A stretch of DNA of 64,000 nucleotides from an uncultured Chloroflexia bacterium (GCA_963781705.1 CAWAGP010000010.1:101028-165027); one strand, 5' to 3'. Counted from the first letter of the stretch, positions 7,081-58,415 are shown. Notes: a model not told the origin generated them from the sequence alone. Translations and numbers: made by a program.

Positions 7081-7118
7081 GCCGAGCTGTCTCCGGGAAC
7101 GATGTGCCGGGGCGGTCG

Positions 7119-9317
7119 CTAGCCGCGTGTCCTGGTCGCGCCGCCGGCCGCGGCGACCGTGCGCCGCCGCGCACGTGCCGGAGTCTTCAGCTGCTGGGAC
7201 GCGGGGACGTAGAGCTCCTCGACGTACTGGCGCAGCATCCTGCTCGTCGAGAACTGCCAGATGGAGCTGGCCATCGCCTCTTTCATCATCGCCAGCCAGC
7301 GCCGCGGCAGGCCGGCCTGATCGCGCTCGTAGTAGGCCGCGGTGATCTCGTTCTCGAGCAGGCGATAGAGGTCCTGTGCGTCGGCCCAGTCCTGTGCCCC
7401 TTCGTCGGCGTTCTGCTCGCGGCTGCCGATCGCCCAGCCGTTGCGGCCGTTGTAGCCCTCGTCCCACCAGCCATCGAGGACCGACACATTGGTCACGCCG
7501 TTCATGGCGCCCTTCATGCCGCTGGTGCCCGACGCCTCGAGTGGCCGGCGCGGGGTGTTCAGCCAGACGTCGACGCCCTGGACCAGGTAGCGCCCGACTC
7601 GTATGTCGTAGTCCTCGAGCACGAACACCCGGTTGGCGAACTTGGGCGACCGGCTGCGAGTGAAGATGTCCTGGATCACCCGCTGGCCGGGCCGGTCGGC
7701 CGGGTGGGCCTTGCCGGCAAACACGATCTGCACCGGGCGCTGCTCATGAAGCAGGATCCGCGCGAGGCGCTCCTCGTCGGAGAAGATCAGCGCCGCGCGT
7801 TTGTACGTCGCGAAGCGCCGCGCGAAGCCGATCGTCAGAACGTCCTGGTCGAGCGCCGAAGCCAGCGCCTCGAGCAGGCTGGGCAATTCGCCGTGGCGGG
7901 CGAACTGCGAGGTCAGCCGGCGACGGCAGAAGAAAGCCAGCTCGAGCTTCTGGCGCCGGTGCGCCTCCCACAGCTCACCGTCGGGCAGGTCTGAGATCTT
8001 CTTCCAGAACGGCTTCTCCTCTGGATCGAGGTTGTCCAGGTCGCCGCCGAGCTGCTGGTACAGGCGCCGGAAAGGCTCTCCCACCCAGCTCGGCGGGTGA
8101 ACGCCGTTGGTGATCCCGAGGATCGGCTTGTCGACCACCGCGCTCCAGGTCGCATTGGCCGTCTGGGCGTGCAGCTGGCTGACCGCGTTGGCGCCCTCTG
8201 TCTCGCGCAGCGAGAAGGCGGTCATGTCGAACTGGTCAGCGTCGTTGTCCGCGCCGCGGCCAAGGGCGAGGATGCGCTCCATGTCCAGGCCGGTTCCTTC
8301 GCCGAGCGGTGCCGCCAGCCGGCGCACCAGCGCGGCGTCGAAGCGCTCATTGCCCGCCGACACGGGCGTGTGGATGGTGAACACGGCGTTGCGCTTGACC
8401 TGCTCGAGCGCCTGATCGAGCGACTGCCCGCCGGCCGCGAACTCGCGCGCGCGCTCGACGAGCATGAACGCCGAATGGCCCTCGTTGAGATGCCATGCCG
8501 TCGGCTCGATCTTGAGCGCGCGCAGCGCGCGCACGCCACCGACGCCGAGCACGATCTCCTGGTGCAGGCGCATCTCCCGGCCGCGCACGTACAGGATGTG
8601 GGTGATCGGCCGGTCGGCTTCGTCGTTCTCGGGAATATCCGTGTCGAGCAGCAGCAGCGGCACCCGTCCCACCTGGGCCAGCCACACGCCGCACCACACC
8701 TTGCGCCCGGGCAGGTCGACGTCGATGCGCAGCGGATCGCCGTCGGGGCCCATCACCTGGCGCAGCGGGAGACGCGTCGGGTCGTAGTCGGGGTAGGCGT
8801 GCTCCTGGTGGCCGTCGGCGTCGATCGTCTGGCGGAAGTAGCCGTGGCGATAGAAGAGGCCGACCGCGACGAACGAGACGGCCATGTCCGACGCCGCCTT
8901 CAGGTGGTCGCCGGCGAGGACACCCAGGCCGCCGGAGTAGATGCCCAGTGATTCGTGCAGGCCGTATTCGGCGCAGAAGTAGGCGATGGGTCCGTCGAAC
9001 TCCTTGGCGTGCTCGCGCGTGAACCAATGGCCGGCGCCGTTCTCCATGTACCGGTCGAAACCGTCCAGCAGCGTGCGGTACTCGGCCATCAGGTCGATGT
9101 CGGACAGGATGACCGACCAATCGCGGTGGGCCTGCAGCAGGGGCACCGGGTTGCGATAGCGCAACCAGCCGGTGGCATCGACACGGCGGAATAGAACGCG
9201 CACCCGCGGATGCCACACCCAGTAGAAGTTGTAGGCCAGGCGCTGGAGGCCTTCAAGTTGGGCGGGTAGCCGCAGGTCTGCCGGTGGCAGCGTGGAAATT
9301 TCGATCCTGCGTGGCAA
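7119..9317 (-). CDS. glgP: Alpha-glucan (glycogen/maltodextrin) phosphorylase, GT35 short form
   Basis: N-terminal LAYNFYWVWHPRVRVLF (DUF3417-like) plus ...FAGKAHPADRPGQRVIQ...TSGMKGAMNG... (PLP-Lys region). TTG start at 9317. Confidence 0.85.
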   Translation of the reverse strand: MPRRIEISTLPPADLRLPAQLEGLQRLAYNFYWVWHPRVRVLFRRVDATGWLRYRNPVPLLQAHRDWSVILSDIDLMAEYRTLLDGFDRYMENGAGHWFTREHAKEFDGPIAYFCAEYGLHESLGIYSGGLGVLAGDHLKAASDMAVSFVAVGLFYRHGYFRQTIDADGHQEHAYPDYDPTRLPLRQVMGPDGDPLRIDVDLPGRKVWCGVWLAQVGRVPLLLLDTDIPENDEADRPITHILYVRGREMRLHQEIVLGVGGVRALRALKIEPTAWHLNEGHSAFMLVERAREFAAGGQSLDQALEQVKRNAVFTIHTPVSAGNERFDAALVRRLAAPLGEGTGLDMERILALGRGADNDADQFDMTAFSLRETEGANAVSQLHAQTANATWSAVVDKPILGITNGVHPPSWVGEPFRRLYQQLGGDLDNLDPEEKPFWKKISDLPDGELWEAHRRQKLELAFFCRRRLTSQFARHGELPSLLEALASALDQDVLTIGFARRFATYKRAALIFSDEERLARILLHEQRPVQIVFAGKAHPADRPGQRVIQDIFTRSRSPKFANRVFVLEDYDIRVGRYLVQGVDVWLNTPRRPLEASGTSGMKGAMNGVTNVSVLDGWWDEGYNGRNGWAIGSREQNADEGAQDWADAQDLYRLLENEITAAYYERDQAGLPRRWLAMMKEAMASSIWQFSTSRMLRQYVEELYVPASQQLKTPARARRRTVAAAGGATRTRG

Positions 9318-31529: not shown

Positions 31530-32375
31530 ATGTCGCTCAGCGGGGCCACCATCGCCACGATCGGCTCGGGTGTGATGGCCGAGGCGATGATTGCTGGTTT
31601 GCTGCGCGGTCATCAGGTCGCCGCGGAGCAGATCATTGCCAGTCACCCGCGCGCCGACCGGCGCGCGGAACTTGTGGCCACCCATGGCATCCGCACCGTC
31701 GCGGAAAACGTCGCTGCTGTCGGACCGGCCGACGTCGTGGTGCTGGCCATCAAGCCGCAGATGCTCGCCCGCGTTGGACGCGACATAGCGCCGGCCATGT
31801 CGGACGGCAAGCTGGTCATCAGCATCATCGCCGGCGCGACGACTCGGGCACTCAGCCAAGCTCTCGGTCACCGGCAGGTCGTGCGCAGCATGCCCAACAC
31901 CCCCGCCCAACTGGGCCGTGGCGTCACCGTCTGGTACGCGACGCCGGAGGTCAGCGAGGCGCAGCGCGCCCAGGCGCGCGCGCTGCTGGGCAGCCTGGGC
32001 ACCGAGCTCGAGGTCGATGACGAGAAGCTGGTGGCCATGGCCACGGCCGTCAGTGGCACCGGTCCGACCTACGTCTTCCTGTTCATGGAAGCGCTCATCG
32101 ATGCCGCCGTGCACCTGGGCTTTGCGCGCCACATCGCCCACGATCTGGTGATCGAGACACTTGAGGGCAGCACCCTGTTCGCCAAGTCGAGCGGCATGCA
32201 CCCGGCCCAGCTGCGCAACATGGTCACCTCGCCGGGCGGCACGAGCGCCGCAGCACTGCACGAGCTCGAGTCGGGTCGGCTGCGGACTGTCGTGTCGGAA
32301 GCGGTCTGGGCGGCATATCGGCGCACGGAGGAGCTGGGCCGGGCGCTCGAGACCGAGACGGCGCCTGATCGATGA
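31530..32375 (+). CDS. proC: Pyrroline-5-carboxylate reductase
   Basis: IATIGSGVMAEAMIAGLL (NADP-binding GxGxxA/G), ...SMPNTPAQLGRGVT..., C-terminal dimerisation domain TSPGGTSAAAL, 281 aa. Confidence 0.8.
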   Translation: MSLSGATIATIGSGVMAEAMIAGLLRGHQVAAEQIIASHPRADRRAELVATHGIRTVAENVAAVGPADVVVLAIKPQMLARVGRDIAPAMSDGKLVISIIAGATTRALSQALGHRQVVRSMPNTPAQLGRGVTVWYATPEVSEAQRAQARALLGSLGTELEVDDEKLVAMATAVSGTGPTYVFLFMEALIDAAVHLGFARHIAHDLVIETLEGSTLFAKSSGMHPAQLRNMVTSPGGTSAAALHELESGRLRTVVSEAVWAAYRRTEELGRALETETAPDR

Positions 32376-33144: not shown

Positions 33145-34440
33145 ATGCGCGTCGAGGTCCTGGCAACGCTCGACTGCCCCCATCTCGAGCGCGCCGAGCA
33201 GATCGTCCGCATCGCCCTGCGCGACGATGGTCGCGAGCCGGTCATCCAGCGCGTGTACGTGAGCGATCTCGACACGGCCGCCGGCCTCGGCTTCCACGGC
33301 TCGCCGACGGTGCGCATCGACGGCCTTGACGTAGTGCCGCCGCCGGCCGACCTGCCGATCAACCTCGGTTGCCGGCTCTACCCGCAGCCGGGCGGCGGTG
33401 TGGACGGCGTCGTGCCCGCCGAGACGATCAGCGCGGAGGTGGAGCGTCGGCACGAGGTTGAGATGCACGCGCGCGCGAACCGCACACACGTGCGCGATGC
33501 GCCCGGCCACCTGTCACGCCAGATGTTCCTGTGGGCGTCGCATCGCGGGTCGCTGGCGCGCGTCGCGACGGCCATCCCGATCACCCGCCGAATGGTCCGC
33601 CGCTTCGTCGCCGGCGACACGCTCGACGACGCGCTCGGCGCGCTGGAGCGGCTGCGCGAGCAGGGCATGCACTGGACGGTGGACGTGCTCGGCGAATCGG
33701 TCGATTCGCGGGAAATGGCAAACGCCGCGGCCGACCGCTACATCGCCACGCTCAACGCCCTGGGCGAGCGCGGCCTCGAAGCGAACGTGTCGCTCAAGCT
33801 CACCCAGATGGGGCTCGACATCGATGCCGGCTTCTGCCGCGACAACGTCGGCCGGGTCGTGGAGCGCGCCAGGCAGCTGGGCGCCTTCGTGCGCGTTGAC
33901 ATGGAAGATCACACCAAGACCGCCGCGACGCTGGCCGTCGCCCGGGCGCTGCACGCTGAATATCACGACGTCGGCGTGGTCATCCAGTCCTACCTGCGCC
34001 GCTCAGCCGACGACATCGAGCAGCTGATCGGCGAGCAGGTCCGCGTGCGGCTGTGCAAGGGCGCCTACGACGAGCCTGGCGCCGTCGCGTTCCCGGCCAA
34101 GGAGGAGGTCGACGAGAGCTACCGCGTGCTCATGGAGCGGCTGTTGCTGGCCGGACGCTACCCGGCCATCGCCACCCACGATGAGCGCCTGATCGACCAC
34201 GCCGTCGAATTCGCGACCAAGCATGGCATCGGCGCCGACCGTTTCGAGTTCCAGATGCTGTACGGCATCCGCCGTGACCTGCACGAGCGGCTCGTGGCGC
34301 AGGGTTTCACCGTGCGCGTGTACGTGCCCTACGGCACGCAGTGGTACCCGTACTACATGCGACGCATGGCCGAACGCCCGGCCAACGTCATCTTCCTGCT
34401 GATGAGCGTGTTGCGCGAAGGCCGCGGCGCGCGCAATTAG
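33145..34440 (+). CDS. Proline dehydrogenase (PRODH) with N-terminal degenerate thioredoxin-like (Thioredoxin_3-type) domain
   Basis: The C-terminal 300 aa show the PRODH TIM-barrel (…VDMEDH…VRLCKGAY…ATHDERLI…). The N-terminal MRVEVLATLDCPHL...GFHGSPTVRIDG matches the small redox-active disulfide-protein fold, with CxxC degenerated to CPHL. RBS AAGGGGA. Confidence 0.7.
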   Translation: MRVEVLATLDCPHLERAEQIVRIALRDDGREPVIQRVYVSDLDTAAGLGFHGSPTVRIDGLDVVPPPADLPINLGCRLYPQPGGGVDGVVPAETISAEVERRHEVEMHARANRTHVRDAPGHLSRQMFLWASHRGSLARVATAIPITRRMVRRFVAGDTLDDALGALERLREQGMHWTVDVLGESVDSREMANAAADRYIATLNALGERGLEANVSLKLTQMGLDIDAGFCRDNVGRVVERARQLGAFVRVDMEDHTKTAATLAVARALHAEYHDVGVVIQSYLRRSADDIEQLIGEQVRVRLCKGAYDEPGAVAFPAKEEVDESYRVLMERLLLAGRYPAIATHDERLIDHAVEFATKHGIGADRFEFQMLYGIRRDLHERLVAQGFTVRVYVPYGTQWYPYYMRRMAERPANVIFLLMSVLREGRGARN

Positions 34441-35105
34441 GTGGCGTCCGCGGCGGCCAGGCGATCCTCGATCTCCCACGCGTGATCGAGCGCGTGCCAT
34501 GCCGAGCGGCGGATGGCAAAGCGGGCTGGCCAGCGCTGGCCGCCGCGCGGCCCGCGATCGGGTAGCTCACCGCGCGCTCGTCGCTCGACCGCGTCGCTGA
34601 ATTCGGCCCGGATCTGGTCCCAGCCGGCGGACGGGTGAGAGCTGCCGCCGACGGCCGACGAGTAGGCGGCGTCCGCGTCGGCCACGTGGGCGCGCATCTT
34701 GTCCAGGGTCCGCCCCCCGCCGCGCGGCCCGGCGGGGGCGAGCAGGCGGCCCTCGGCCGCGTCCGCCGCGCGAGCGAAGGCCGCCCAGGCCGCTTCGAGC
34801 ATGGTCAGCTGCCTGCGCAGTTCGGCGGGCGATATGGGCCGCAGGTCGAAGTCGGCGATCCGCGCCGGCGCCCCGATGTCCGTCGTCGCGTTGCCTTCGA
34901 GTCGCGCCACGACGATGAGCTGCCCGACACTGATGGGCGGCTCGAGGTCGAGCGCCGACCCGCCCATGCTGGTGCGGTAGCGCGGGCCGTACTCGAGCAG
35001 TGCCAGCAGTGCTTCCTCGGCCGACTTGCGTGCCCGCGCCCAGCCCGGCCATTCGACCGCAGCCGCCACCGTGCGCTTGGCGCCGGCCTCCAGGTAGACG
35101 TCCAT
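34437..35105 (-). CDS. Hypothetical protein (possible DinB_2-like helical bundle; HxxxH near C-terminus)
   Basis: 222 aa, ends ...SAWHALDHAWEIEDRL. No confident family assignment. It overlaps the PRODH stop convergently and lies immediately downstream of the DinB-family gene. Confidence 0.4.
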   Translation of the reverse strand: MDVYLEAGAKRTVAAAVEWPGWARARKSAEEALLALLEYGPRYRTSMGGSALDLEPPISVGQLIVVARLEGNATTDIGAPARIADFDLRPISPAELRRQLTMLEAAWAAFARAADAAEGRLLAPAGPRGGGRTLDKMRAHVADADAAYSSAVGGSSHPSAGWDQIRAEFSDAVERRARGELPDRGPRGGQRWPARFAIRRSAWHALDHAWEIEDRLAAADAT

Positions 35106-35121
35106 CGGGCTCCGCGGCCCC

Positions 35122-35619
35122 CTACGCCAGTTCGTCCAGTTGGTCTGCGTGCTCCTCGAGGTGGTGGATCACGAACTCCCCGACGATGGCCTCGACGTCC
35201 ATCTCGCCGCGGCGCGGGTGGAGGCCGACGGCGTGCCGCTGGGCCGGGGTCAGCCCGCCCAGGAAATGGCGCAGCTCTTCGATCGAACTCAGTACGGCGC
35301 GGAGCTGGTCCGCCACCGACGCGCGCCGGTTGGCCTCGATTGTCTCGATCCGGGCGCTGTCTGCCTTGGTTCGGCCGAAGGCCACCGGCACGCCGTGATA
35401 GCCGGCGATGACGGCTTCGGCCTGGTGCTGCCAGTAGGGCACGAACTCCGCGATGTGCGCCCAGATCTGGCCGGCGTCCCAACGTTCGTCCGCGCCCGGA
35501 TCCGGCTCGCTCAGGCCGTGCGGGAAGGGCCGCTGCGCGAGTTGGTCGAGGCGCCCCTCGAGCACGCCGAGTTGCGCCACGAAGTCGACCCGGCCGTCTG
35601 TCTGGTCCGCGGCTGGCAT
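35122..35619 (-). CDS. DinB/DinB_2 superfamily protein (mycothiol-dependent maleylpyruvate-isomerase N-terminal-domain-like)
   Basis: GQIWAHIAEFVPYW ... FVIHHLEEHADQL (H...HxxxH metal-binding pattern of DinB_2), 165 aa. It is immediately downstream of hmgA. Confidence 0.55.
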   Translation of the reverse strand: MPAADQTDGRVDFVAQLGVLEGRLDQLAQRPFPHGLSEPDPGADERWDAGQIWAHIAEFVPYWQHQAEAVIAGYHGVPVAFGRTKADSARIETIEANRRASVADQLRAVLSSIEELRHFLGGLTPAQRHAVGLHPRRGEMDVEAIVGEFVIHHLEEHADQLDELA

Positions 35620-35630
35620 GCCGGTCGGCC

Positions 35631-36854
35631 TCAGTCGGGGAAGGCTTCCGGGCCGCGCTCGGCGAGCGCCTGCGCCTGCTCGTCGGGATTGTCCGGCGGC
35701 AGCCAGCTGTACGGGTAGGACTCGTCCTCGAGCCGCGCGGCCTCACGCGTGAGGTTGAGCGGATGGAAGGTGTCGACCATCACCGCCAGCTCTTCGGTGC
35801 CCTCCTTGCCGATCGACGCCTCGACCGTGCCCGGATGCGGACCGTGCGGGATGCCGCCCGGGTGGAGGGTGAAGGAGCTGGTCTCGACGCCGCGCCGGCT
35901 CATGAAGTTGCCCGCGACGTAGTAGATGACCTCGTCGCTGTTGATGTTCGAATGGTTGTACGGCGCCGGGATGGCCAGCGGGTGGTAGTCGAATTTGCGC
36001 GGCACGAACGAGCACACCACGTAGTTGCGGCCGGCAAAAGTCTGGTGGACGGGCGGCGGCTGGTGAACCCGTCCGGTGATCGGCTCGAAGTCGCCGATGT
36101 TGAAGATGAACGGGTACAGGTAGCCGTCCCAGCCGACGACGTCGAAGGGGTGGTGCCTGAAGTGGTAGGCGGTGATGCGCCCACGGACGCGCACCCAGAT
36201 GACGAATGCGCCCGTGTCGGTACGCGCCGCGGTCTCATCGGGCACGCGGATGTCGCGCTGCGAGAACGGGGAATGCTCGAGCAGTTGTCCCCACTCGTTG
36301 CGGTAGCGCTGGGGTGGGACTATCTCCGACGGCGACTCGACGTACATGATCCGGTGGGCGCTGCCAGGTTTCTGGGCGAGGCGCCAGGTGGTGCCGATGG
36401 GAATCACGATGTAGTCACCGGGGGCGTAGCTCATCGAGCCGAAGACGCTCTCGAACGTGCCCTCGCCCTCGTGCACGAAGAGCATCTCGTCGGCCTCGCC
36501 GTTGCGATAGAAGGTGTCGTCAGGCAGGCTCTCGGTCGGTCGCGCGACGCCGATCAGCACGTCGCTGTTGAAGAACAGCGGCGTTCGCCCGTCGACGATG
36601 TTGCCACCGGGTGCGATGCCGCCGGTCTTGACCAGCCGGTGCCGATGCAGCCCGTCATCGATCGCCTCATGGTGGATGTCGTGCACGCGCTCGATCTGGT
36701 GTGTCTGCGTCGGCGGCGTCACGTGGTACAGCAGCGACGATCGGCCGGTGAAGCCCTCCATGCCGAACAGCTCCTCGGCATAGAGCTTGCCGTCGGGAGC
36801 CCGATGCTGGGTATGGCGCTTGTGCGGGATGTTGCCCCGGCTCATGTAGAACAC
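35631..36854 (-). CDS. hmgA: Homogentisate 1,2-dioxygenase
   Basis: Highly conserved HmgA blocks (…GFTGRSSLLYH…, …YHPLAIPAPYNHSN…, …FTLHPGGIPHGPHPG…). The start is either GTG 36854 or ATG 36845. Confidence 0.85.
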   Translation of the reverse strand: MFYMSRGNIPHKRHTQHRAPDGKLYAEELFGMEGFTGRSSLLYHVTPPTQTHQIERVHDIHHEAIDDGLHRHRLVKTGGIAPGGNIVDGRTPLFFNSDVLIGVARPTESLPDDTFYRNGEADEMLFVHEGEGTFESVFGSMSYAPGDYIVIPIGTTWRLAQKPGSAHRIMYVESPSEIVPPQRYRNEWGQLLEHSPFSQRDIRVPDETAARTDTGAFVIWVRVRGRITAYHFRHHPFDVVGWDGYLYPFIFNIGDFEPITGRVHQPPPVHQTFAGRNYVVCSFVPRKFDYHPLAIPAPYNHSNINSDEVIYYVAGNFMSRRGVETSSFTLHPGGIPHGPHPGTVEASIGKEGTEELAVMVDTFHPLNLTREAARLEDESYPYSWLPPDNPDEQAQALAERGPEAFPD

Positions 36855-36892
36855 GATCGAAGTCTAGGTCAGTGGCACACAGGCCGAGCCGG

Positions 36893-37909
36893 TCACGAGC
36901 GCGTCGGGTGGTCGACCACGGGAGCGCTCAGCTCGCACAGCCGCTCGACGGCGATGGTCACGGTGTCGCCCGGCTGTAGGTAGCGGCCGAAGCCCGACTC
37001 GTCCTTCATCTCGAGCAGGCAGCCGGTGCCGACCGTGCCCGAGCCGAGCACGTCGCCCGGGACGAGGTGGACGTCGGCCGACGCGCGGGCGACCATCGCG
37101 CCGAAGCTGTGGCCAATGTCGCGCCAGTTGCCGCGCGAGATCTCCATGCCGTTGATCGTCGCCGTTGCCACCAGGTCGTAGCCCTTGGCAGCGCGTTTGT
37201 CGGCCAGCTCGTCGGGCGTGACCAGCCACGGCCCGAGCGTCGTGGCGAAGTCCTTGCCCTTGGCCGGTCCCAGGCGAACCGTCGTCTCGTCGCGCTGCAG
37301 GTCGCGCGCCGACCAATCGTTCATGAGCATGTAGCCGCCGATGGCCTGCTCACCATGGTCCGGCGACAGGTCGTGCGCGGGCGTATCGATCAGCGCCGCG
37401 ATCTCGAGCTCGTAGTCGAGCTCGAGCGAGCCGCGCGGCGCCCAGACCGGCGCGCCCGGGCCGCGGATCTCGGATACGTTGCTGAAGTAGAAGATCGGCA
37501 GCCGGTGCCAGGCCTCGGGGATGGGCATGTCACGCCGCTTCCACATGGTGCCCACGTGGCGCTCGAAGGCATAGAAGTCGCGCAGGCTGGCCGGGCGCAG
37601 GATCGGTGGCCCGAAGTCAAGATCGGCCGCGTCGCTGACGGCGTCGTCTTCTTCGTCGGCGGGCTCGAAGCGATCGAGGATGTCGGCCAGTGCTTCGACG
37701 CGAACGCCGCGCGCCAGGATCTCGTCCAAAGTGCTCAGCGGCTGCCGGAACAGGATGCTGTTGTGAGCCAGCCGCTCGTCGCGCTGCACGGCCCGGCGTC
37801 GGCCCACTTCCAGGTCCAGCCAGCGCCCGCCGGCCGGATCGAGCGCCGCATGGAGCCGGTACGGAGCACCGGCCGGCGCGTGCCGTTCGCGGGCGTGGGC
37901 AATCTTCAT
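36893..37909 (-). CDS. Fumarylacetoacetate hydrolase (FAH) family protein, probable fumarylacetoacetase
   Basis: FAH fold C-terminal domain (…GYMLMNDWSARDLQ…GPAKGKDFATT…GDVLGSGTVG…). It sits in an operon position directly upstream of hmgA. Confidence 0.7.
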   Translation of the reverse strand: MKIAHARERHAPAGAPYRLHAALDPAGGRWLDLEVGRRRAVQRDERLAHNSILFRQPLSTLDEILARGVRVEALADILDRFEPADEEDDAVSDAADLDFGPPILRPASLRDFYAFERHVGTMWKRRDMPIPEAWHRLPIFYFSNVSEIRGPGAPVWAPRGSLELDYELEIAALIDTPAHDLSPDHGEQAIGGYMLMNDWSARDLQRDETTVRLGPAKGKDFATTLGPWLVTPDELADKRAAKGYDLVATATINGMEISRGNWRDIGHSFGAMVARASADVHLVPGDVLGSGTVGTGCLLEMKDESGFGRYLQPGDTVTIAVERLCELSAPVVDHPTRS

Positions 37910-37919
37910 CTACCCGAGT

Positions 37920-38540
37920 CTATTGGCCTTTGCCCTTACGCTGCTGTCCGCCGACCGCCCGCCAGACCAGCGCCGCGGTGCGCGCCGGCCAATCTCGGCT
38001 GGCTGGCGCGCCCGCCAGCTCGCGCGCATACCACGACCCGGTGGGCAGGCTGGTGGCTGCCTCCAGGTCAGCGTCAGCGTCTATCAGACCGCGTTCGAGT
38101 GCCCGTTCCAGGATGGCGAGAATGCGTGCGCGTCGCGGCGCGACGACATGGTCGCGATAGCAGGCGAGTGACGTGTCGTCGGTGGACTGCTGGAGCATCG
38201 TGCCCACCAACGAAACCGCTCCGGGTCGGGTCATGATGCGCTGGAAGTCGGCCAGTTCCAGCTCAAGGTCGTGCAGCGGATCGTCGCTGTCGGTCCTTCG
38301 GTTGTCTTCCGCCCCCAATCGAATGGCGTCCGCGGCCAGGCTCGACTTGCTCGGCCAGCGGCGGTATAGCGCCTGGCGCGTGGTGCCCGCCTCATGCGCC
38401 ACCGCGGTCAGCGACAGCGCCTCGAAGCCGTGTGCCGCAAGGTGACGATTGGCTACCTCGAGCACACGCGTATCGATGGATGGATCGCGCCGCCGGCCTC
38501 GGCAAACGGCTGGCTGGGCGGCAGGGCGGTCAATTGACAT
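37920..38540 (-). CDS. TetR/AcrR family transcriptional regulator
   Basis: N-terminal HTH ...LSLTAVAHEAGTTRQALYRRWPSK is the TetR signature. It ends 10 nt upstream of the FAH start. Confidence 0.75.
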   Translation of the reverse strand: MSIDRPAAQPAVCRGRRRDPSIDTRVLEVANRHLAAHGFEALSLTAVAHEAGTTRQALYRRWPSKSSLAADAIRLGAEDNRRTDSDDPLHDLELELADFQRIMTRPGAVSLVGTMLQQSTDDTSLACYRDHVVAPRRARILAILERALERGLIDADADLEAATSLPTGSWYARELAGAPASRDWPARTAALVWRAVGGQQRKGKGQ

Positions 38541-38545
38541 ACGGT

Positions 38546-38569
38546 GCAGTATTGTATTGCATATAGCAG
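38546..38569. promoter_or_regulatory. AT-rich quasi-palindromic element TGCAGTATTGTATTGCATATAGCA in the tetR / DUF385 divergent promoter (putative TetR operator)
   Basis: An about 25-bp AT-rich island in an otherwise 70% GC genome. It contains the tandem GTATT GTATT and the inverted TGCA...TGCA, and lies 6 nt from the tetR start codon and about 70 nt from the divergent gene. Confidence 0.4.
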
Positions 38570-38638
38570 GGCCCCAGTGGCCCGGAACAACACTTCAGGC
38601 GGGCAGCCGGCCCGCGCACGAGAGGAACACAGCGAACC

Positions 38639-39067
38639 GTGTCTGATTGGAACTCCAAGATCATCGACGAATTTCATGCCAAGGGCGGCCAGGGAGTCGG
38701 TCCGTTCGGTGACCGTCTGCTGCTGCTCACGACCCGCGGCGCCAAGTCGGGGCGGCCGCATACCACGCCGCTGGCGTACACCCGCGACGGCGATCGTTAC
38801 GTGATCATCGCCTCGATGGGCGGCGCACCCAAGCACCCGGCCTGGTACCACAACCTCGTCAAGAACCCCGACGCGGAGGTCGAGATCGGCCGCGAGCGTT
38901 TCGCGGTGCGCGCCACGCCACTACCCAGCGGCCCGGAGCACGATCGGCTGTACGAACAGCAGGCGCAGGTAATGCCCGGCTTCCGGACTTACCAGGAGAA
39001 GACCAGCCGGATCATCCCGGTCGTCCTGCTCGAGCGCGCCGACGAGCCGGGTAGCCTCGCCGCCTGA
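38639..39067 (+). CDS. Deazaflavin (F420)-dependent nitroreductase family protein (DUF385 / PNPOx-like)
   Basis: MSDWNSKIIDEFHAKGG...LLLLTTRGAKSGRPHTTPLAY...PAWYHNL is the DUF385 signature. GTG start. Confidence 0.7.
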   Translation: MSDWNSKIIDEFHAKGGQGVGPFGDRLLLLTTRGAKSGRPHTTPLAYTRDGDRYVIIASMGGAPKHPAWYHNLVKNPDAEVEIGRERFAVRATPLPSGPEHDRLYEQQAQVMPGFRTYQEKTSRIIPVVLLERADEPGSLAA

Positions 39068-39336
39068 TCGTGGCCCGATGTCGTGTCCCCACGCTGCTCG
39101 TGACGAACGCGATGCCCTGCTGCCGATACCGACCCCCAGTCGGAAGTGAGCCGGATTTGCTATCGCGGTAGGCCCCGCGGGAGCCGAAACAGCCGGTCTG
39201 GGGCCGAAGTAGGCGCCAGCGTCGGCGAATTGACGAGATCCGCGTCCGCGAAGACCGAAACCGTTTCTAGCTTTCGGCGCACGCGCGGATTCGGCGGCGA
39301 TGAGCGCGGCGCCTCGTCGTGCGTCGGCCGCGCCGG

Positions 39337-40506
39337 CTAGAGGTTGCCGCGCTTGGCCTGCTCGCGCTCGATCGCCTCGAAAAGCGCCTTGAAGTTGCCC
39401 ACGCCAAAGCCGCGTGAGCCGTGGCGCTCGATGATCTCGAAGAAGAAGGTCGGCCGGTCCTGGATGGGCCGCGTGAAGATCTGCAGCAGGTAGCCCTCCT
39501 CGTCGCGGTCGGCCTCGATGCCCAGCTCCTCGAGCGTGTCCATGGGCACGCCCACGTCGCCCACGCGATCGGGCAGCGCGGCGTAGTACTCGTGCGGCAT
39601 GCCCAGGAACTCCACCCCGTTGTCGCGCAGCTGGCGGACCGTGGCCACGATGTCCTCCGTGCGCAACGCGACGTGCTGCGTCCCTGAGTCGAGGTACCAG
39701 TCCAGGAACTCCTGGATCTGGCTCTTCTTCTTGCCCGTCGCCGGCTCGTTGATCGGAAACTTGATGCGGCCGTTGCCGTTGGTCATGACCTTGCTCATCA
39801 ACGCCGAATAGTCGGTGTGGATGACCTTGTCGTCGTAGTGGATGAGCTGCGAGAAGCCGAATACGTCGCGGTAGTAGTCGACGTACTTGTTCATGTCGCC
39901 CAGCTCGACGTTGCCCACGCAGTGGTCGATCTCGAGCAGCGACAGGCCCTTCGCCGCCGCGGCCGGCTTCTTGACCTTGCGATAGCCGGGCGCAAACGCG
40001 CCGTGGTAGTCGTTGCGGTCGATGAATGTGTGAATGACCTCGCCGTAGGTGCGCACGGCCGACTTGCGCAGCACGCCATCGTCGCCGGCATCGATCTCGG
40101 TCGGCTCGAGCACGCTCGCCGCGCCGCGCTTGGTCGTCTCGCGCCAGGCCGATTCGACGTCATCGACGCTGAACGCGATGTCCTTAACGCCGTCACCGTG
40201 GCGATGGACATGCTCGGCGATCTCGCCGTCGGGCGTGAGTGGCGCGGTCAGCACGAAGCGGATGTCGTTCTGGACCATCACGTACGAGGCGCGATCACGC
40301 ACCTTCGTCTCGAGGCCCGAGTACGCGACCGGCGTGAAGCCCCACAGGGCGCGGTAGTAGGCCGATGCCTGGCGGGCATTGCCGACCCAGAACTCGACGT
40401 AGTCGATGCCCTTGAGTGGCAGGAAGTCCTGTGCCTCGGCGTAGGCATCCTTGTTGATGTGCGCGCCGGCCTGGTTGGCGGCGCCGCGCGAGATGGTCTG
40501 CGTCAT
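39337..40506 (-). CDS. hppD: 4-hydroxyphenylpyruvate dioxygenase
   Basis: Two VOC modules, C-terminal ...LLQIFTRPIQDRPTFFFEIIERHGSRGFGVGNFKALFEAIEREQ is the classic HPPD tail. Internal ATG at 40506 with AGGAGT upstream. The track's 199-aa N-terminal extension is antisense junk overlapping cvpA. Confidence 0.85.
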   Translation of the reverse strand: MTQTISRGAANQAGAHINKDAYAEAQDFLPLKGIDYVEFWVGNARQASAYYRALWGFTPVAYSGLETKVRDRASYVMVQNDIRFVLTAPLTPDGEIAEHVHRHGDGVKDIAFSVDDVESAWRETTKRGAASVLEPTEIDAGDDGVLRKSAVRTYGEVIHTFIDRNDYHGAFAPGYRKVKKPAAAAKGLSLLEIDHCVGNVELGDMNKYVDYYRDVFGFSQLIHYDDKVIHTDYSALMSKVMTNGNGRIKFPINEPATGKKKSQIQEFLDWYLDSGTQHVALRTEDIVATVRQLRDNGVEFLGMPHEYYAALPDRVGDVGVPMDTLEELGIEADRDEEGYLLQIFTRPIQDRPTFFFEIIERHGSRGFGVGNFKALFEAIEREQAKRGNL

Positions 40507-40581
40507 CGCGTACTCCTGCCGTGCGTGGGTTCGGCCGTCATGGTAGCCCTCGTTCTGCCATGATCGCGCCTGGAGGGGCCA

Positions 40582-41196
40582 ATGGACATCGTTCTGGTCG
40601 GGTTCATCGCCGGTCTTACTTTCGGCGGCTGGCGGACGGGTTTCCTGCACCGCCTGGCCGGCCTGGCCTTCATGGCCATCGCCTTCGTGCTCGGTGCCTA
40701 TCTGCGCGGGCCGTTCGGCGACCTGATCACGGGCTTCTTCCCCAACATTCCGTCTGACTACGGCAGCCTGCTCGGCTACGTCTTCGTCTTCCCGGTCGTG
40801 CTGGCCGTGCTGCACATCGCCACGTATCCGTTCCTGCACGGACGACGGCTGGGCAGCATGACCAAGACGGTCGATCGCGGCCTGGGCGCGCTGCTCGGCT
40901 TCGCCGAGGCTGTGCTCATCCTGTCCGCCGTGGTGGTCATCCTGGATACTTACTTCACGGGCGGCCAGACCGCCGGCCACACGCCCGGCCTCAACTACAT
41001 CACCTCGCTGACGGGGTCGTTCAACGGCTCGGTCACGGTTGGCCTGCTGCGCGACACGACGGTGCCGCTCGTGCTGGGCCTGCTTGGCCCGTTGCTGCCG
41101 CACGACATCTCATCGCTGGTACCCGGCGGCATGCCCGGCCTGCCCGGCATGCCCGGCGGCCCGGGCGGCCTGCCCGGCGTGCCGCACCTCCCCTGA
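40582..41196 (+). CDS. CvpA family membrane protein
   Basis: MDIVLVGFIAGLTFGGWRTGFLHRLAGLAFMAIAFVLGAYL... has four TM helices (CvpA topology). It has a Pro/Gly-rich C-terminal tail. Confidence 0.6.
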   Translation: MDIVLVGFIAGLTFGGWRTGFLHRLAGLAFMAIAFVLGAYLRGPFGDLITGFFPNIPSDYGSLLGYVFVFPVVLAVLHIATYPFLHGRRLGSMTKTVDRGLGALLGFAEAVLILSAVVVILDTYFTGGQTAGHTPGLNYITSLTGSFNGSVTVGLLRDTTVPLVLGLLGPLLPHDISSLVPGGMPGLPGMPGGPGGLPGVPHLP

Positions 41197-41336
41197 GCCG
41201 CGCGACACTGGCCGATCTTCCGCCTACGACCACCAGGCTGACCCGGCCGCATCCCGACCACCGGCGGCTGGAGGAGCTGGCTTTCCTGGCCGAGGTCGCC
41301 CGGCTGGTCAGTTCGGCGCGGACGTGGGACGAGCTG

Positions 41337-44963: not shown

Positions 44964-45869
44964 CTATCGGGCGCGCTCCTCGCGGCACACGTTGCGCAGG
45001 CGGCCGATGCGCTCGATGTCGATGACCAGCTCGTCCCCGTCGTGGAGCGTCCGCTGAGGGTGGCGGAACCAGCCCACCCCGGCCGGTGTGCCGGTCGCCA
45101 GGATGTCGCCCGGCTCGAGCGTGAACGCCTGGGAACAGAACGAGATCAACTCGGCGACGCCGAAGATCATCTCGGCCGTTGACGCGTCCTGCATCACCTC
45201 GCCGTTGACCAGGCTGCGCACACGCAGCCGCTGCGGATCACCGGCCTCGTCCGGGGTGACCAGCCAGGGACCCATCGGGCAGAACGTGTCGAGTGACTTG
45301 GCGCGCACGAATTGGCGGTCGGCGTATTGCAGGTCGCGCGCGCTGACGTCGTTCAGGCAGGTGTAGCCGAGGACGTGATCGAGTGCCTGCGCCGGGGCGA
45401 CGCGCCGGCAGGAGCGGCCGATGATCACCGCGAGCTCGGCCTCGAGGTCGACTGCCTGCGTCAGCTGCGGGTCCCAGCGGATGTCGGCGTCCGGGCCGAC
45501 CACCGCGGTGGTCAGCTTGGCGAACAACACCGGGTGGTCGGGTGGTTCGCGATTCTGCTCGGCCGCATGGCCGGCGTAGTTCACCCCCACCGCGACGATC
45601 TTGCCCGGCCGCGGAAGGGGAGCGAGTAGCTCGACCTCGTCCAGGGCCATGCTCAGAGCATTGATCGCCCGCTCGCTTGAGTCGGCCACGGCCGCTATCT
45701 GGCGCAGCTCGGCCGGCCCGCGGCGACACAACTCGGCCATCGTCGCGGGCAGCGACTCGTCGAGTGCCGCAACGGCCACGACGCGCTCCCCGAAGACCAG
45801 GCCCAGCCGCGCTTCGCGACCCGTCTCGGCGGGCAGCGCAGTGATCGAGCGGAAGGAGGCAAGCTTCAT
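44964..45869 (-). CDS. Fumarylacetoacetate hydrolase family protein (2-keto-4-pentenoate hydratase/isomerase-decarboxylase-like)
   Basis: MKLASFRSI...GKIVAVGVNYAGHAAE...VIIGR...LNDVSARDLQ... are FAH-family catalytic-domain motifs. Internal ATG 45869; the upstream extension is low-complexity. There is a 4-nt overlap with the response-regulator start. Confidence 0.7.
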   Translation of the reverse strand: MKLASFRSITALPAETGREARLGLVFGERVVAVAALDESLPATMAELCRRGPAELRQIAAVADSSERAINALSMALDEVELLAPLPRPGKIVAVGVNYAGHAAEQNREPPDHPVLFAKLTTAVVGPDADIRWDPQLTQAVDLEAELAVIIGRSCRRVAPAQALDHVLGYTCLNDVSARDLQYADRQFVRAKSLDTFCPMGPWLVTPDEAGDPQRLRVRSLVNGEVMQDASTAEMIFGVAELISFCSQAFTLEPGDILATGTPAGVGWFRHPQRTLHDGDELVIDIERIGRLRNVCREERAR

Positions 45870-56092: not shown

Positions 56093-57472
56093 ATGGACGG
56101 CGTGCTCGATCTGATCGTCCGCAACGCGGACCTGGTCAATGCGACCGGCCGGCGCCGAACGGACATCGGCGTCGCCGGCGGCCGCATCGTTGCGCTTGTG
56201 CACAACGGCGTGCTCGATCAGCCAGCGCGCGAAGTGATCGATGCAGCCGGCTTGGTCGCGCTCCCCGGCCTGATCGACGAGCACGTCCACTTCCGCCAGC
56301 CTGGACTCGAACACGAGGAGGACTGGCTGACCGGGTCACGTGCCGCGGTGATGGGCGGCGTCACGACCGTCCTCGACATGCCCAACACCGTGCCGCCCAC
56401 CGACAGCGTCACCGCCGCGCGCGCCAAGCTCGGCCTCGCCGGGCAGCGATCAATGTGCGACTTTGGCATCTTCGGCCTGGCCGCGCAGAACCTCGGCGCG
56501 CTAGCCGAGATGGTTAGCGCGGGGCTGATCGTCGGGTTGAAGGTCTTCCTGGGCCCGACCACGGGCGGCCAGCCGGCACCATCGGACGACACCCTGCGGC
56601 GAGCGCTGGACTTGGCCCACGGCGCCGGCCTGCGCGTCGGCTTCCACGCCGAAGACGACGAGATCGTCCTCGCCAACGAGGCGCGCCTGCTGGCCGCCGG
56701 CCGGCAGGATGCGGTGGCACATCTTGAGGCTCGCCCCGCTGGGGCAGAGGTAGCGGCCATCGACCGCGCCGGCAGGCTGCTGCATGAGAGTGGCACCGCC
56801 GGCCACATCTTCCACCTCTCGTCGCTCGACGGCCTGGTGGCCGTCGAGCGCTGGCGACTGGCCGGCGTCGACCTGACCTGTGAGGTGACTCCGCACCACT
56901 GTCTTCTCGGCCGCGAGGCGTACGCGGCGGTCGGCGGTGTGGCGCGCGTCAACCCGCCCTTCCGCGGCGAGCCACATGCCGCCGGCCTGCTCGCCGCGCT
57001 GGCCGATGGACGCATCGATTGCCTGGGCAGCGACCATGCGCCGCATCTGCCCACTGACAAGCGACGGGCCTCGATCTGGAGCGTGCCGTCCGGCTTCGCC
57101 GGTGTCGAAACACTGCTGCCGCTGATGCTGACTGCGGTTCACCGGCAGCAGTTGAGCCTGGAGCGGCTGGTCGCGGCCACCTCCGAGCGGCCGGCGCAGA
57201 TCTGGGGCCTTGCCCCGCGCAAGGGACACGTCGCGGTCGGCGCGGACGCCGACCTGACGCTGGTCGATCTGCAGCGGCGCGGAGCGGTCCGCGCCGCCGA
57301 AATGCACGGCAAGAACAACGAGTCGCCGTTCGAGGGCCGCCCGACGATCGGGGCACCGGTGGCGACAATCGTGCGTGGCCGGGTCGTCATGGGCCACGGT
57401 CAGCTGCTCGCGCGGGCCGGCTGGGGGCGCGCGGTGAATGATGAAAACGATCAAGCGCGCTCGCCCAGCTAG
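56093..57472 (+). CDS. Cyclic amidohydrolase (dihydroorotase / allantoinase / dihydropyrimidinase family), most like type-I dihydroorotase
   Basis: HVHFRQPG (HxH metal site), ...FHAEDDE..., ...GSDHAPH..., about 459 aa. Confidence 0.65.
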   Translation: MDGVLDLIVRNADLVNATGRRRTDIGVAGGRIVALVHNGVLDQPAREVIDAAGLVALPGLIDEHVHFRQPGLEHEEDWLTGSRAAVMGGVTTVLDMPNTVPPTDSVTAARAKLGLAGQRSMCDFGIFGLAAQNLGALAEMVSAGLIVGLKVFLGPTTGGQPAPSDDTLRRALDLAHGAGLRVGFHAEDDEIVLANEARLLAAGRQDAVAHLEARPAGAEVAAIDRAGRLLHESGTAGHIFHLSSLDGLVAVERWRLAGVDLTCEVTPHHCLLGREAYAAVGGVARVNPPFRGEPHAAGLLAALADGRIDCLGSDHAPHLPTDKRRASIWSVPSGFAGVETLLPLMLTAVHRQQLSLERLVAATSERPAQIWGLAPRKGHVAVGADADLTLVDLQRRGAVRAAEMHGKNNESPFEGRPTIGAPVATIVRGRVVMGHGQLLARAGWGRAVNDENDQARSPS

Positions 57473-58415
57473 CGCGCAGGATCAACTCATGGAGATCTCC
57501 ACGGCCCAATCCGACACGTTCGTCCGGTTCGTGGACGGCCTGGCCGATGCACTCGCCGGCGACGCCTTGAGCGCCGACGAGCACGCTGCCCGCGCATTCA
57601 TGTCGCGCAGCCATTTCGATCGCGTCATCCGCGCGGTCGCCGGCGAACCGCCGATCGCCTTTCGGCGACGGCTGCTCCTCGAGCGGGCGGCGTATCGACT
57701 GGCCATCGCGGGCGACGACATCCTTGAAATTGCGCTCGAGGCCGGCTACTCGTCGCACGAGGCATTCGTGCGCGCGTTCCGCCGCGCCTACGGCGTCAAC
57801 CCATCCGAGTGGCGCTCGGCACCACGGCAGATCCGGCTGCCGACGCCCAACGACGTGCATTTCCACCCACCCGGCGGCCTGCGGCTGCCGACCCGAAACG
57901 AGGTGACATCAATGGACCTGATCGTGCGCATGGTCGAGCACCACGTGTGGCTGCTCGGCGAAATGGTCGATCGCGCCGCGCGACTCGACGACAAGGCACT
58001 CGACAAGCGCATCGAGCTGTCGGTCGAGGACATCGACGAGGACCAGACAATTCGTTCGCTGCTCTCGCGGTTGATCGGCCAGATGGACATGTGGAACAAC
58101 GTCATTCATGACCGGCCGTACGACTGGGAGGTCGAGAAGCACGAGTCGATCGCCTCGTTGCGCTCGCGGCTGGCGAGCGTGGGCCCGGCGTTCCTGGCCG
58201 AGGTGCGTCGCGTGACGTCCGAGAACCGGCTCGACGAGACCTTCGTCGACGCTCATTGCGAACCGCCGGAGATCTTCACCTACGGCGGCCTGATCGCTCA
58301 TGTACTGACGTTCGCGGCCCATCGCCGGGTGCTCGTCCTGGGAGCGCTCGAGTCGGCCGGCATCGCCGACCTGGGCGCCGGCGACCCGCGCAAGTGGGTG
58401 GCCGAAGCTGCCTGA
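57438..58415 (+). CDS. AraC-type HTH domain fused to DinB_2-like four-helix-bundle domain
   Basis: N-terminal AraC HTH (…IALEAGYSSHEAFVRAFRRAYGVNPSEWR), C-terminal MVEHHVWLLGEM... DinB-like. Alternative start ATG 57489. Confidence 0.6.
   Translation: MMKTIKRARPASAQDQLMEISTAQSDTFVRFVDGLADALAGDALSADEHAARAFMSRSHFDRVIRAVAGEPPIAFRRRLLLERAAYRLAIAGDDILEIALEAGYSSHEAFVRAFRRAYGVNPSEWRSAPRQIRLPTPNDVHFHPPGGLRLPTRNEVTSMDLIVRMVEHHVWLLGEMVDRAARLDDKALDKRIELSVEDIDEDQTIRSLLSRLIGQMDMWNNVIHDRPYDWEVEKHESIASLRSRLASVGPAFLAEVRRVTSENRLDETFVDAHCEPPEIFTYGGLIAHVLTFAAHRRVLVLGALESAGIADLGAGDPRKWVAEAA

Follow-up and report, generated by a model that had tools for sequence, protein, structure and literature searches.

To our knowledge, every characterised maleylacetoacetate isomerase is a glutathione-dependent, zeta-class glutathione S-transferase (GST). 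Many bacteria that degrade tyrosine via homogentisate make no glutathione. In Bacillus anthracis, a maleylacetoacetate isomerase gene is not identifiable and the fate of maleylacetoacetate is unclear (PMC4457819). Of the DinB/YfiT proteins, only the mycothiol-dependent maleylpyruvate isomerase (MDMPI) has been credited with a known role in vivo (PMC5790435). Here, we describe a DinB/YfiT-fold protein of 165 amino acids (aa) that is encoded at 35122-35619 on the minus strand of a 64,000-nucleotide (nt) stretch of DNA, hereafter the window, from an uncultured Chloroflexia bacterium (GCA_963781705.1, CAWAGP010000010.1:101028-165027). We consider it likely that this protein is a metal-dependent, and probably thiol-dependent, maleylacetoacetate isomerase that replaces the zeta-class GST non-homologously. 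The observations behind this reading are the fold, an invariant metal triad, homologues that occupy the isomerase slot of gentisate clusters, and, in two phyla, a conserved linkage or fusion to hmgA, the fumarylacetoacetase (FAH) gene, hppD, and an aminotransferase. An initial annotation of the window had already proposed a thiol-dependent DinB_2 isomerase at this position, with mycothiol and the actinobacteria in mind.

The homologues of the 165-aa protein mostly bear a precomputed match to the Pfam family DinB_2 (PF12867), and some of them match PF11716 (MDMPI_N) as well. The AlphaFold2 model built from the homologue alignment, with a predicted local distance difference test (pLDDT) score of 92.5, is a four-helix bundle similar to YfiT and MDMPI. 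Foldseek searches of the PDB matched this model to YfiT (1rxq, template modelling (TM) score 0.69), BH0186, MDMPI (2nsf, TM 0.66), and mycothiol S-transferase, all with a probability of 1.00; the alignment with MDMPI covers only the N-domain, with a TM score of 0.47 when normalised on the target. As modelled, the protein belongs to the DinB/STL superfamily as a YfiT-like form with one domain, not as the two-domain MDMPI type, and its placement in the superfamily of MDMPI, made in the initial annotation, agrees with the model. The H...HxxxH motif noted there is real and consists of H55, H153, and H157, which do not vary among 23 aligned homologues and are conserved at 98% or more in 308 family domains, so that the predicted metal-binding residues are kept on a YfiT/MDMPI-like scaffold. 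The other invariant residues in the 23 homologues are D40, E45, W47, W53, E58, Y62, W63, F81, G82, R83, K85, D87, R90, and H134, and the residues conserved family-wide in the 308 domains are W47, H55, E58, W63, G82, R83, R90, G132, H134, G138, H153, H157, and Q160.

On the minus strand, the order of the cluster is hppD, a divergent DUF385 gene, tetR, FAH, hmgA, the DinB gene, and a 222-aa open reading frame (ORF), as first annotated and in agreement with both the ORF listing and the family scans. Judged by sequence, this is a homogentisate (tyrosine) catabolic cluster in which HppD, HmgA, and fumarylacetoacetase are encoded together. The hppD gene (39337-40506, minus strand), for the homogentisate-forming 4-hydroxyphenylpyruvate dioxygenase, scores 426 bits against NCBIfam TIGR01263 (cutoff 277), and its product contains the Pfam domains Glyoxalase and Glyoxalase_5; the ORF is open as far back as 41103, and the family match begins near the ATG at 40506. 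A gentisate-pathway reading of the cluster was rejected because hppD passes its equivalog model, and it is also ruled out by the phenylalanine hydroxylase and aromatic aminotransferase that accompany these genes in Acidimicrobiia. The FAH gene (36893-37909, minus strand) encodes a C-C hydrolase of the FAH family (PF01557, 163 bits), a short form of 338 aa and a predicted fumarylacetoacetase. Its core (residues ~106-240) aligns best with the solved fumarylacetoacetases 4qku, 5ti1, 9sqs, and 1hyo, and alignment to solved structures shows that it retains the fumarylacetoacetase motifs DFYxxxxH, ELE, NDWSARDxQ, and GPxxxKxFxT. The hmgA gene (35631-36854, minus strand; Pfam HgmA_N, 33 bits) encodes a short-type homogentisate 1,2-dioxygenase homologue of 407 aa, a divergent short form that scores 44 bits against TIGR01015 (cutoff 510) and is only remotely similar to human HGD (1ey2, E 4e-7). 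The iron-ligand positions of 1EY2, which we take to be His/Glu/His, align with the window protein, YNHSNINSDE being paired with YYHRNCMSE and IPHGP with TPHGP. Both hmgA and FAH are far under the NCBIfam equivalog cutoffs; the key residues are nonetheless retained.

No GST_N or GST_C domain was found among the 57 candidate ORFs (>=80 aa) across the entire 64-kilobase (kb) window, and HppD, HmgA, and the FAH-family protein are therefore encoded without a visible zeta-class GST gene, as the initial annotation had it. No thiol-biosynthesis genes were seen among the window ORFs either. The intergenic gaps are 10 nt between tetR and FAH, 38 nt between FAH and hmgA, 11 nt between hmgA and the DinB gene, and 16 nt between the DinB gene and the 222-aa ORF. 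The DinB gene directly follows hmgA and the 222-aa ORF closely follows the DinB gene, both as annotated, and only the earlier count of 12 nt for the hmgA-DinB gap had to be corrected. A scan of 34000-41200 for promoters and terminators returned none on the minus strand. About 7 kb from the cluster lies a second FAH-superfamily gene (44964-45869, minus strand, open to 46163; PF01557, 252 bits), which groups with the pathway FAH in one broad blast cluster.

The metagenome-assembled genomes that encode the close homologues of the DinB protein are all labelled Limnocylindria, Limnocylindrales, or Chloroflexota; an exact-sequence lookup of the window's own protein returned no recorded gene context. 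Searching one-genome-per-species GTDB contigs with the family alignment gave 325 relatives, the best 80 of which were taken with 10-kb flanks, and the adjacency counts given here refer to 81 distinct loci (numbers with the prefix L denote loci). These loci were read by tblastn with the window proteins, and the tblastn coordinates were used since the GC-frame gene caller over-extended or mis-called several ORFs. FAH lies immediately 5' of DinB in 55 loci, co-directional and mostly overlapping or touching, and hmgA takes this place in a further 13, so that DinB is co-directional with and adjoins one of the two genes in 68 of the 81 loci; hmgA or FAH is present elsewhere in 12 loci, and one locus is uninformative because of a contig end. 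The conservation beside pathway genes that the initial annotation called for is thus found in Limnocylindria. The orthologues are 44-68% identical, and the partner gene varies between clades; the linkage has therefore outlasted rearrangement. Apparent exceptions (L028, L016, L004, L005, and L007) contain a frameshifted or contig-truncated hmgA or FAH. In three of these, hmgA or FAH is split over two or three frames (L004, 3448-4670; L016, 3202-4425; L028, 8967-9971), by assembly frameshifts or as real pseudogenes. Neither a thiol nor a GST lead came from the HDAC-like, VOC, MFS, luciferase-like, and GGDEF proteins that are also conserved nearby.

Among the 1.84 billion representative proteins searched, 610 belong to the family, fused forms included. 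According to Pfam and NCBIfam, the DinB domain is preceded in one kind of fusion by a PRK03321 (HisC/Pat-type) aminotransferase and followed in another by a Thr/Ser-dehydratase-like domain dependent on pyridoxal phosphate (PLP); GNAT and hemerythrin partners are rarer. The aminotransferase-DinB fusion comprises more than 100 protein clusters of ~530-545 aa from Acidimicrobiales, Ilumatobacteraceae, and other Actinomycetota, with a full DinB domain retained in 110 of the 120 listed relatives. Six of its genomic contexts were read (L085-L090; gene at about 7001/8001 to 8560/9623), and in five of them the fusion lies within a tyrosine-catabolic context. The order is hppD, fusion, canonical FAH, and hmgA in L086 and L087, both with phenylalanine hydroxylase and an AsnC regulator; phenylalanine hydroxylase, AsnC, hppD, fusion, and FAH in L089; fusion and FAH in L090; and hppD, at some remove, with fusion and hmgA in L085. 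The route from phenylalanine to fumarate and acetoacetate is fully covered by genes in L086 and L087 but for the isomerase, and DinB is the only domain there without an assignment. The co-occurrence of DinB with hmgA in actinobacterial genomes, raised as a check in the initial annotation, takes the form of an Acidimicrobiia fusion in operons of hppD, aminotransferase-DinB, FAH, and hmgA. Hundreds of Acidimicrobiia entries named 'histidinol-phosphate aminotransferase' are such fusions in tyrosine/phenylalanine operons (P0253, P0254, P0400, and P0459 among them), and their current annotation overlooks the C-terminal DinB domain.

In a search of 72,556 plasmids, the only homologues were two proteins, both encoded in gentisate clusters of Bacillota. 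Alicyclobacillus dauci (L091, NZ_CP104065.1, 140939-144737) has the order 3-hydroxybenzoate 6-monooxygenase, gentisate 1,2-dioxygenase, FAH-family, and DinB, and Bacillus toyonensis (L095, NZ_CP126522.1, 173146-175738) has the order FAH-family, DinB, and gentisate dioxygenase, with a 4-nt overlap. The identity to the window protein is 28% in A. dauci and 23% in B. toyonensis. Both proteins retain W47, H55, E58, W63, G82, R83, R90, H153, H157, and Q160, which is approximately the same set as that conserved in the 308 homogentisate-linked family domains. By their position, these remote homologues fill the isomerase slot of the two clusters and lend independent support to an isomerase; we take BagL, the maleylpyruvate isomerase of Paenibacillus, to occupy the equivalent slot. 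Upstream in the B. toyonensis cluster are genes for a coenzyme A ligase, a thiolase, a thioesterase, and an FAD oxidoreductase. The Bacillota homologues also bear on the idea that the adjacency is inherited synteny without functional meaning, with DinB hitch-hiking beside the pathway genes. The loci are mostly from one class, Limnocylindria, in which gene order could persist by descent. Against this stand the two arrangements, after hmgA and after FAH, among orthologues as little as 44% and at most 68% identical, a second phylum that fuses the domain into the same pathway, and a third with homologues in analogous gentisate clusters; mere hitch-hiking is already disfavoured and has, in our judgement, scarcely any chance of being correct.

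The proposed isomerase would convert 4-maleylacetoacetate, the cis product of HmgA, into the FAH substrate 4-fumarylacetoacetate. With H55, H153, and H157 as its ligands, a divalent metal would bind and activate a low-molecular-weight thiol, whose thiolate would add to the maleyl C=C bond; after rotation of the bond the thiol would depart to leave the trans isomer, while R83 and R90, both conserved, would position the carboxylate and the diketone of the substrate. We infer the reaction with its substrate, the involvement of a thiol, and the identity of that thiol, with the mechanism modelled on two DinB-type maleylpyruvate isomerases and on the zeta-class GST. The initial proposal of a DinB_2 isomerase is strengthened by the conserved linkage and fusion, the metal residues, and the gentisate homologues; its reaction and thiol use keep their conditional standing, and its actinobacterial, mycothiol-based framing falls away. 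From the names of the close homologues, the host belongs to the Chloroflexota, class Limnocylindria, and mycothiol is therefore not an expected cofactor; Chloroflexota are not known to produce mycothiol. A literature search on the thiols of Chloroflexi found nothing.

Several observations weigh against an isomerase. One is a second fusion in Limnocylindria, where the DinB ORF of 19 loci reads through without a stop, in the same frame and with hardly any linker, into a Thr/Ser-dehydratase-like PLP domain of ~310 aa that is closest to threo-3-hydroxy-L-aspartate ammonia-lyase (L024, L026, L031, L032, L049, L050, L055, L059, L061, L062 (10001-11410), L064, L066, L071, L073, L076, L077, L079, L080, and L081). 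This domain has no obvious role in the pathway and is the main misfit. In several close relatives (L004, L008, L009, L013, L016, and L092), a block with an extracytoplasmic function (ECF) sigma factor is inserted between hmgA and DinB, in some together with a large unannotated or NHL-repeat protein, and after the insertion DinB stays beside the 222-aa homologue and proline dehydrogenase. Among the Acidimicrobiia, the fusion gene of L088 has no pathway neighbours, and in L094, which is syntenic with L085, the gene at 7001-8278 encodes a 425-aa aminotransferase with a partly deleted DinB domain; hmgA still directly follows this aminotransferase despite the decay. The family assignment is itself marginal by sequence: a profile search of the DinB gene product gave 22.8 bits (E 1.3e-4) against PF12867, slightly below the gathering score of 24.8, and no NCBIfam match at E <= 0.01, TIGR03083 included. 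Because the family alignment, used as a profile against PDB sequences, gave a sole, marginal match (2rd9, E 0.037), the classification as DinB rests on the predicted structure. Moreover, the short FAH might take the cis isomer directly, and the DinB superfamily is functionally diverse, most of its characterised members being thiol S-transferases (PMC10950700, PMC5815605).

The last point would suit a DinB protein that is a thiol S-transferase guarding the pathway, conjugating a low-molecular-weight thiol to benzoquinone acetate or to maleylacetoacetate and fumarylacetoacetate as alkylating electrophiles, with no isomerisation. Among solved structures, the bacillithiol S-transferase YfiT/BstA comes closest, mycothiol S-transferase matches too, and the gene for an F420H2-dependent quinone reductase in the cluster suggests that quinone stress is relevant. 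However, with a guarding enzyme nothing would catalyse the isomerisation, even in otherwise complete operons with a canonical FAH, and genes for conjugate processing (an amidase or exporter) are not conserved alongside DinB in the contexts examined. The overlaps with FAH and the fusion to the aminotransferase better suit a stoichiometric pathway enzyme, and the homologues that take the isomerase position in gentisate clusters likewise speak for isomerisation; we hold an S-transferase to be unlikely.

The cluster might also need no dedicated isomerase, with FAH cleaving maleylacetoacetate to maleate and acetoacetate, or with isomerisation proceeding spontaneously or by free thiol, and with DinB having another role, linked with PLP enzymes or regulation. 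Such a scheme would fit the maleylacetoacetate hydrolase activity long ago reported for Bacillus (cited in PMC4457819), and the FAH superfamily includes direct maleylpyruvate hydrolases (PDB 6jvv, a weak match to the window FAH). The non-canonical length of the window FAH and the fusion of the DinB domain to two distinct PLP enzymes, the aminotransferase and the dehydratase-like protein, point in the same direction. Conversely, the Acidimicrobiia fusion operons have a canonical fumarylacetoacetase with an FAA_hydrolase_N domain, the signature residues of fumarylacetoacetase are retained in the window FAH, and the scheme leaves unexplained why DinB has tracked FAH and hmgA through rearrangements. 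This route seems to us quite improbable, and a DinB-type isomerase remains the preferred reading.

Next to the DinB gene, the 222-aa ORF (34437-35105, minus strand) encodes a protein whose N-terminal alpha/beta domain is HicB-like and whose C-terminal domain has the DinB fold. Profile searches gave no Pfam or NCBIfam match for this ORF, and the DinB fold is seen in its model (pLDDT 91.6); the HicB-like name comes from one database source for a homologue. Its family has its own invariant triad, H140...H204xxxH208 (H140, H204, and H208). With this triad and its DinB-fold domain, a position 16 nt behind the DinB gene, and continued presence beside DinB where an insertion parts hmgA from DinB, the 222-aa protein could itself be the isomerase or be required by the 165-aa protein as a partner. 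However, it is missing from the 55 FAH-DinB loci and from the Acidimicrobiia operons. The gene is confined to a close clade, where it accompanies proline dehydrogenase, and in L084 it lies ~3.5 kb from DinB and still beside proline dehydrogenase. Its family contains more than 7000 proteins against 260 for the DinB family, and because it is more than 25 times larger, the 222-aa protein is not pathway-specific. It is probably a second, tandem DinB-fold gene outside the conserved pathway module, and a part for it in the isomerisation is very unlikely.

The 3' end of the 222-aa ORF overlaps by 4 nt with the convergent proline dehydrogenase gene (~33500-34440, plus strand), which, together with a pyrroline-5-carboxylate reductase gene (31560-32375, plus strand), adjoins the tyrosine cluster; this neighbourhood is kept throughout the close Limnocylindria clade. 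The co-directional block of tetR, FAH, hmgA, and DinB opens with a TetR-family regulator (37920-38540, minus strand; Pfam TetR_N and TetR_C_11), kept 5' of FAH in close relatives. Transcribed divergently from tetR is the gene of the F420H2-dependent quinone reductase family (DUF385/Ddn-like; 38639-39067, plus strand; PF04075, 132 bits; TIGR00026, 106 bits), which is kept only in close relatives and has an equivalent position in 11 related loci (including L006, L008, L009, L011, L017, L021, L022, L037, L042, and L084). Its product may return benzoquinone acetate, the auto-oxidation product of homogentisate, to homogentisate. Further along the window, the C-terminal part of an AraC-type helix-turn-helix regulator (57438-58415, plus strand) matches DinB_2 below threshold (22.8 bits) and may be a third DinB-like domain in the window, serving as a putative ligand-sensing module.

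The full-text literature searched, which left most subscription journals outside its coverage, contains no description of DinB proteins linked to maleylacetoacetate or homogentisate; a Streptomyces paper found there gives only an automatic "maleylpyruvate isomerase family" annotation and describes no DinB-type isomerase. By analogy, the present locus would extend the DinB-type maleyl-ketoacid isomerases to a new substrate, a new pathway, new phyla, and new fusions. Going one step further, we lean by a little towards the view that this DinB family is the glutathione-independent maleylacetoacetate isomerase of Chloroflexota and Acidimicrobiia that lack glutathione, evolutionarily tied to the maleylpyruvate isomerases of Bacillota. 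The Acidimicrobiia fusion would then be bifunctional, joining transamination, step one, with isomerisation, step four, and the Limnocylindria enzyme would work with a thiol not yet assigned to the class or with the metal alone. If true, a gap in the textbook tyrosine pathway would be closed, and hundreds of genes that now go by "hypothetical", "DinB family", or "histidinol-phosphate aminotransferase" would receive a corrected annotation. In addition, the large, mostly function-less DinB/STL superfamily would gain a physiological reaction beyond the single in vivo role credited to it, and there would be a handle on the low-molecular-weight thiol of Limnocylindria.

There are clear differences between the window protein and the enzymes with which it can be compared. 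The zeta-class isomerases (MaiA/HmgC/GSTZ1), which serve proteobacteria and eukaryotes, share the proposed reaction and the same pathway position, between HmgA and FAH. However, they have a thioredoxin-like GST fold and depend on glutathione, whereas the window protein is an unrelated DinB helical bundle with no GST domain, and none occurs in the window or in the annotated contexts examined. YfiT/BstA, the best structural match (1rxq), resembles the window protein as a single domain of ~170 aa with a His triad, at ~17% sequence identity. YfiT/BstA and the mycothiol S-transferase of Mycobacterium tuberculosis conjugate thiols to xenobiotic electrophiles and act outside catabolic operons, unlike the window DinB. 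In the case of MDMPI from Corynebacterium glutamicum (NCgl2918, PDB 2nsf/2nsg), the DinB-type four-helix-bundle metal site is shared, both genes lie in a ring-cleavage cluster between the cupin dioxygenase and FAH-family hydrolase steps, and the proposed reaction is chemically equivalent, a cis-trans isomerisation of a maleyl-ketoacid via thiol addition. MDMPI serves the gentisate pathway instead of the homogentisate pathway and has 240 aa with an extra C-terminal domain, compared with the one 165-aa domain of the window protein, which does not match the MDMPI family model TIGR03083. The metal triad of MDMPI is His/Glu/His, unlike the His/His/His of the window protein. BagL of Paenibacillus sp. 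NyZ101 is reportedly an L-cysteine-dependent maleylpyruvate isomerase, and is said to be small, to come from a Gram-positive host lacking glutathione, to have three essential conserved histidines, and to be stimulated by metal. Its substrate, maleylpyruvate, belongs to the gentisate pathway; like BagL, the window protein is a small DinB protein beside genes for a ring-cleaving cupin dioxygenase and a FAH-family hydrolase. Furthermore, the Bacillota DinB proteins of bag-like gentisate clusters share the motif set of the window protein at 23-28% identity.

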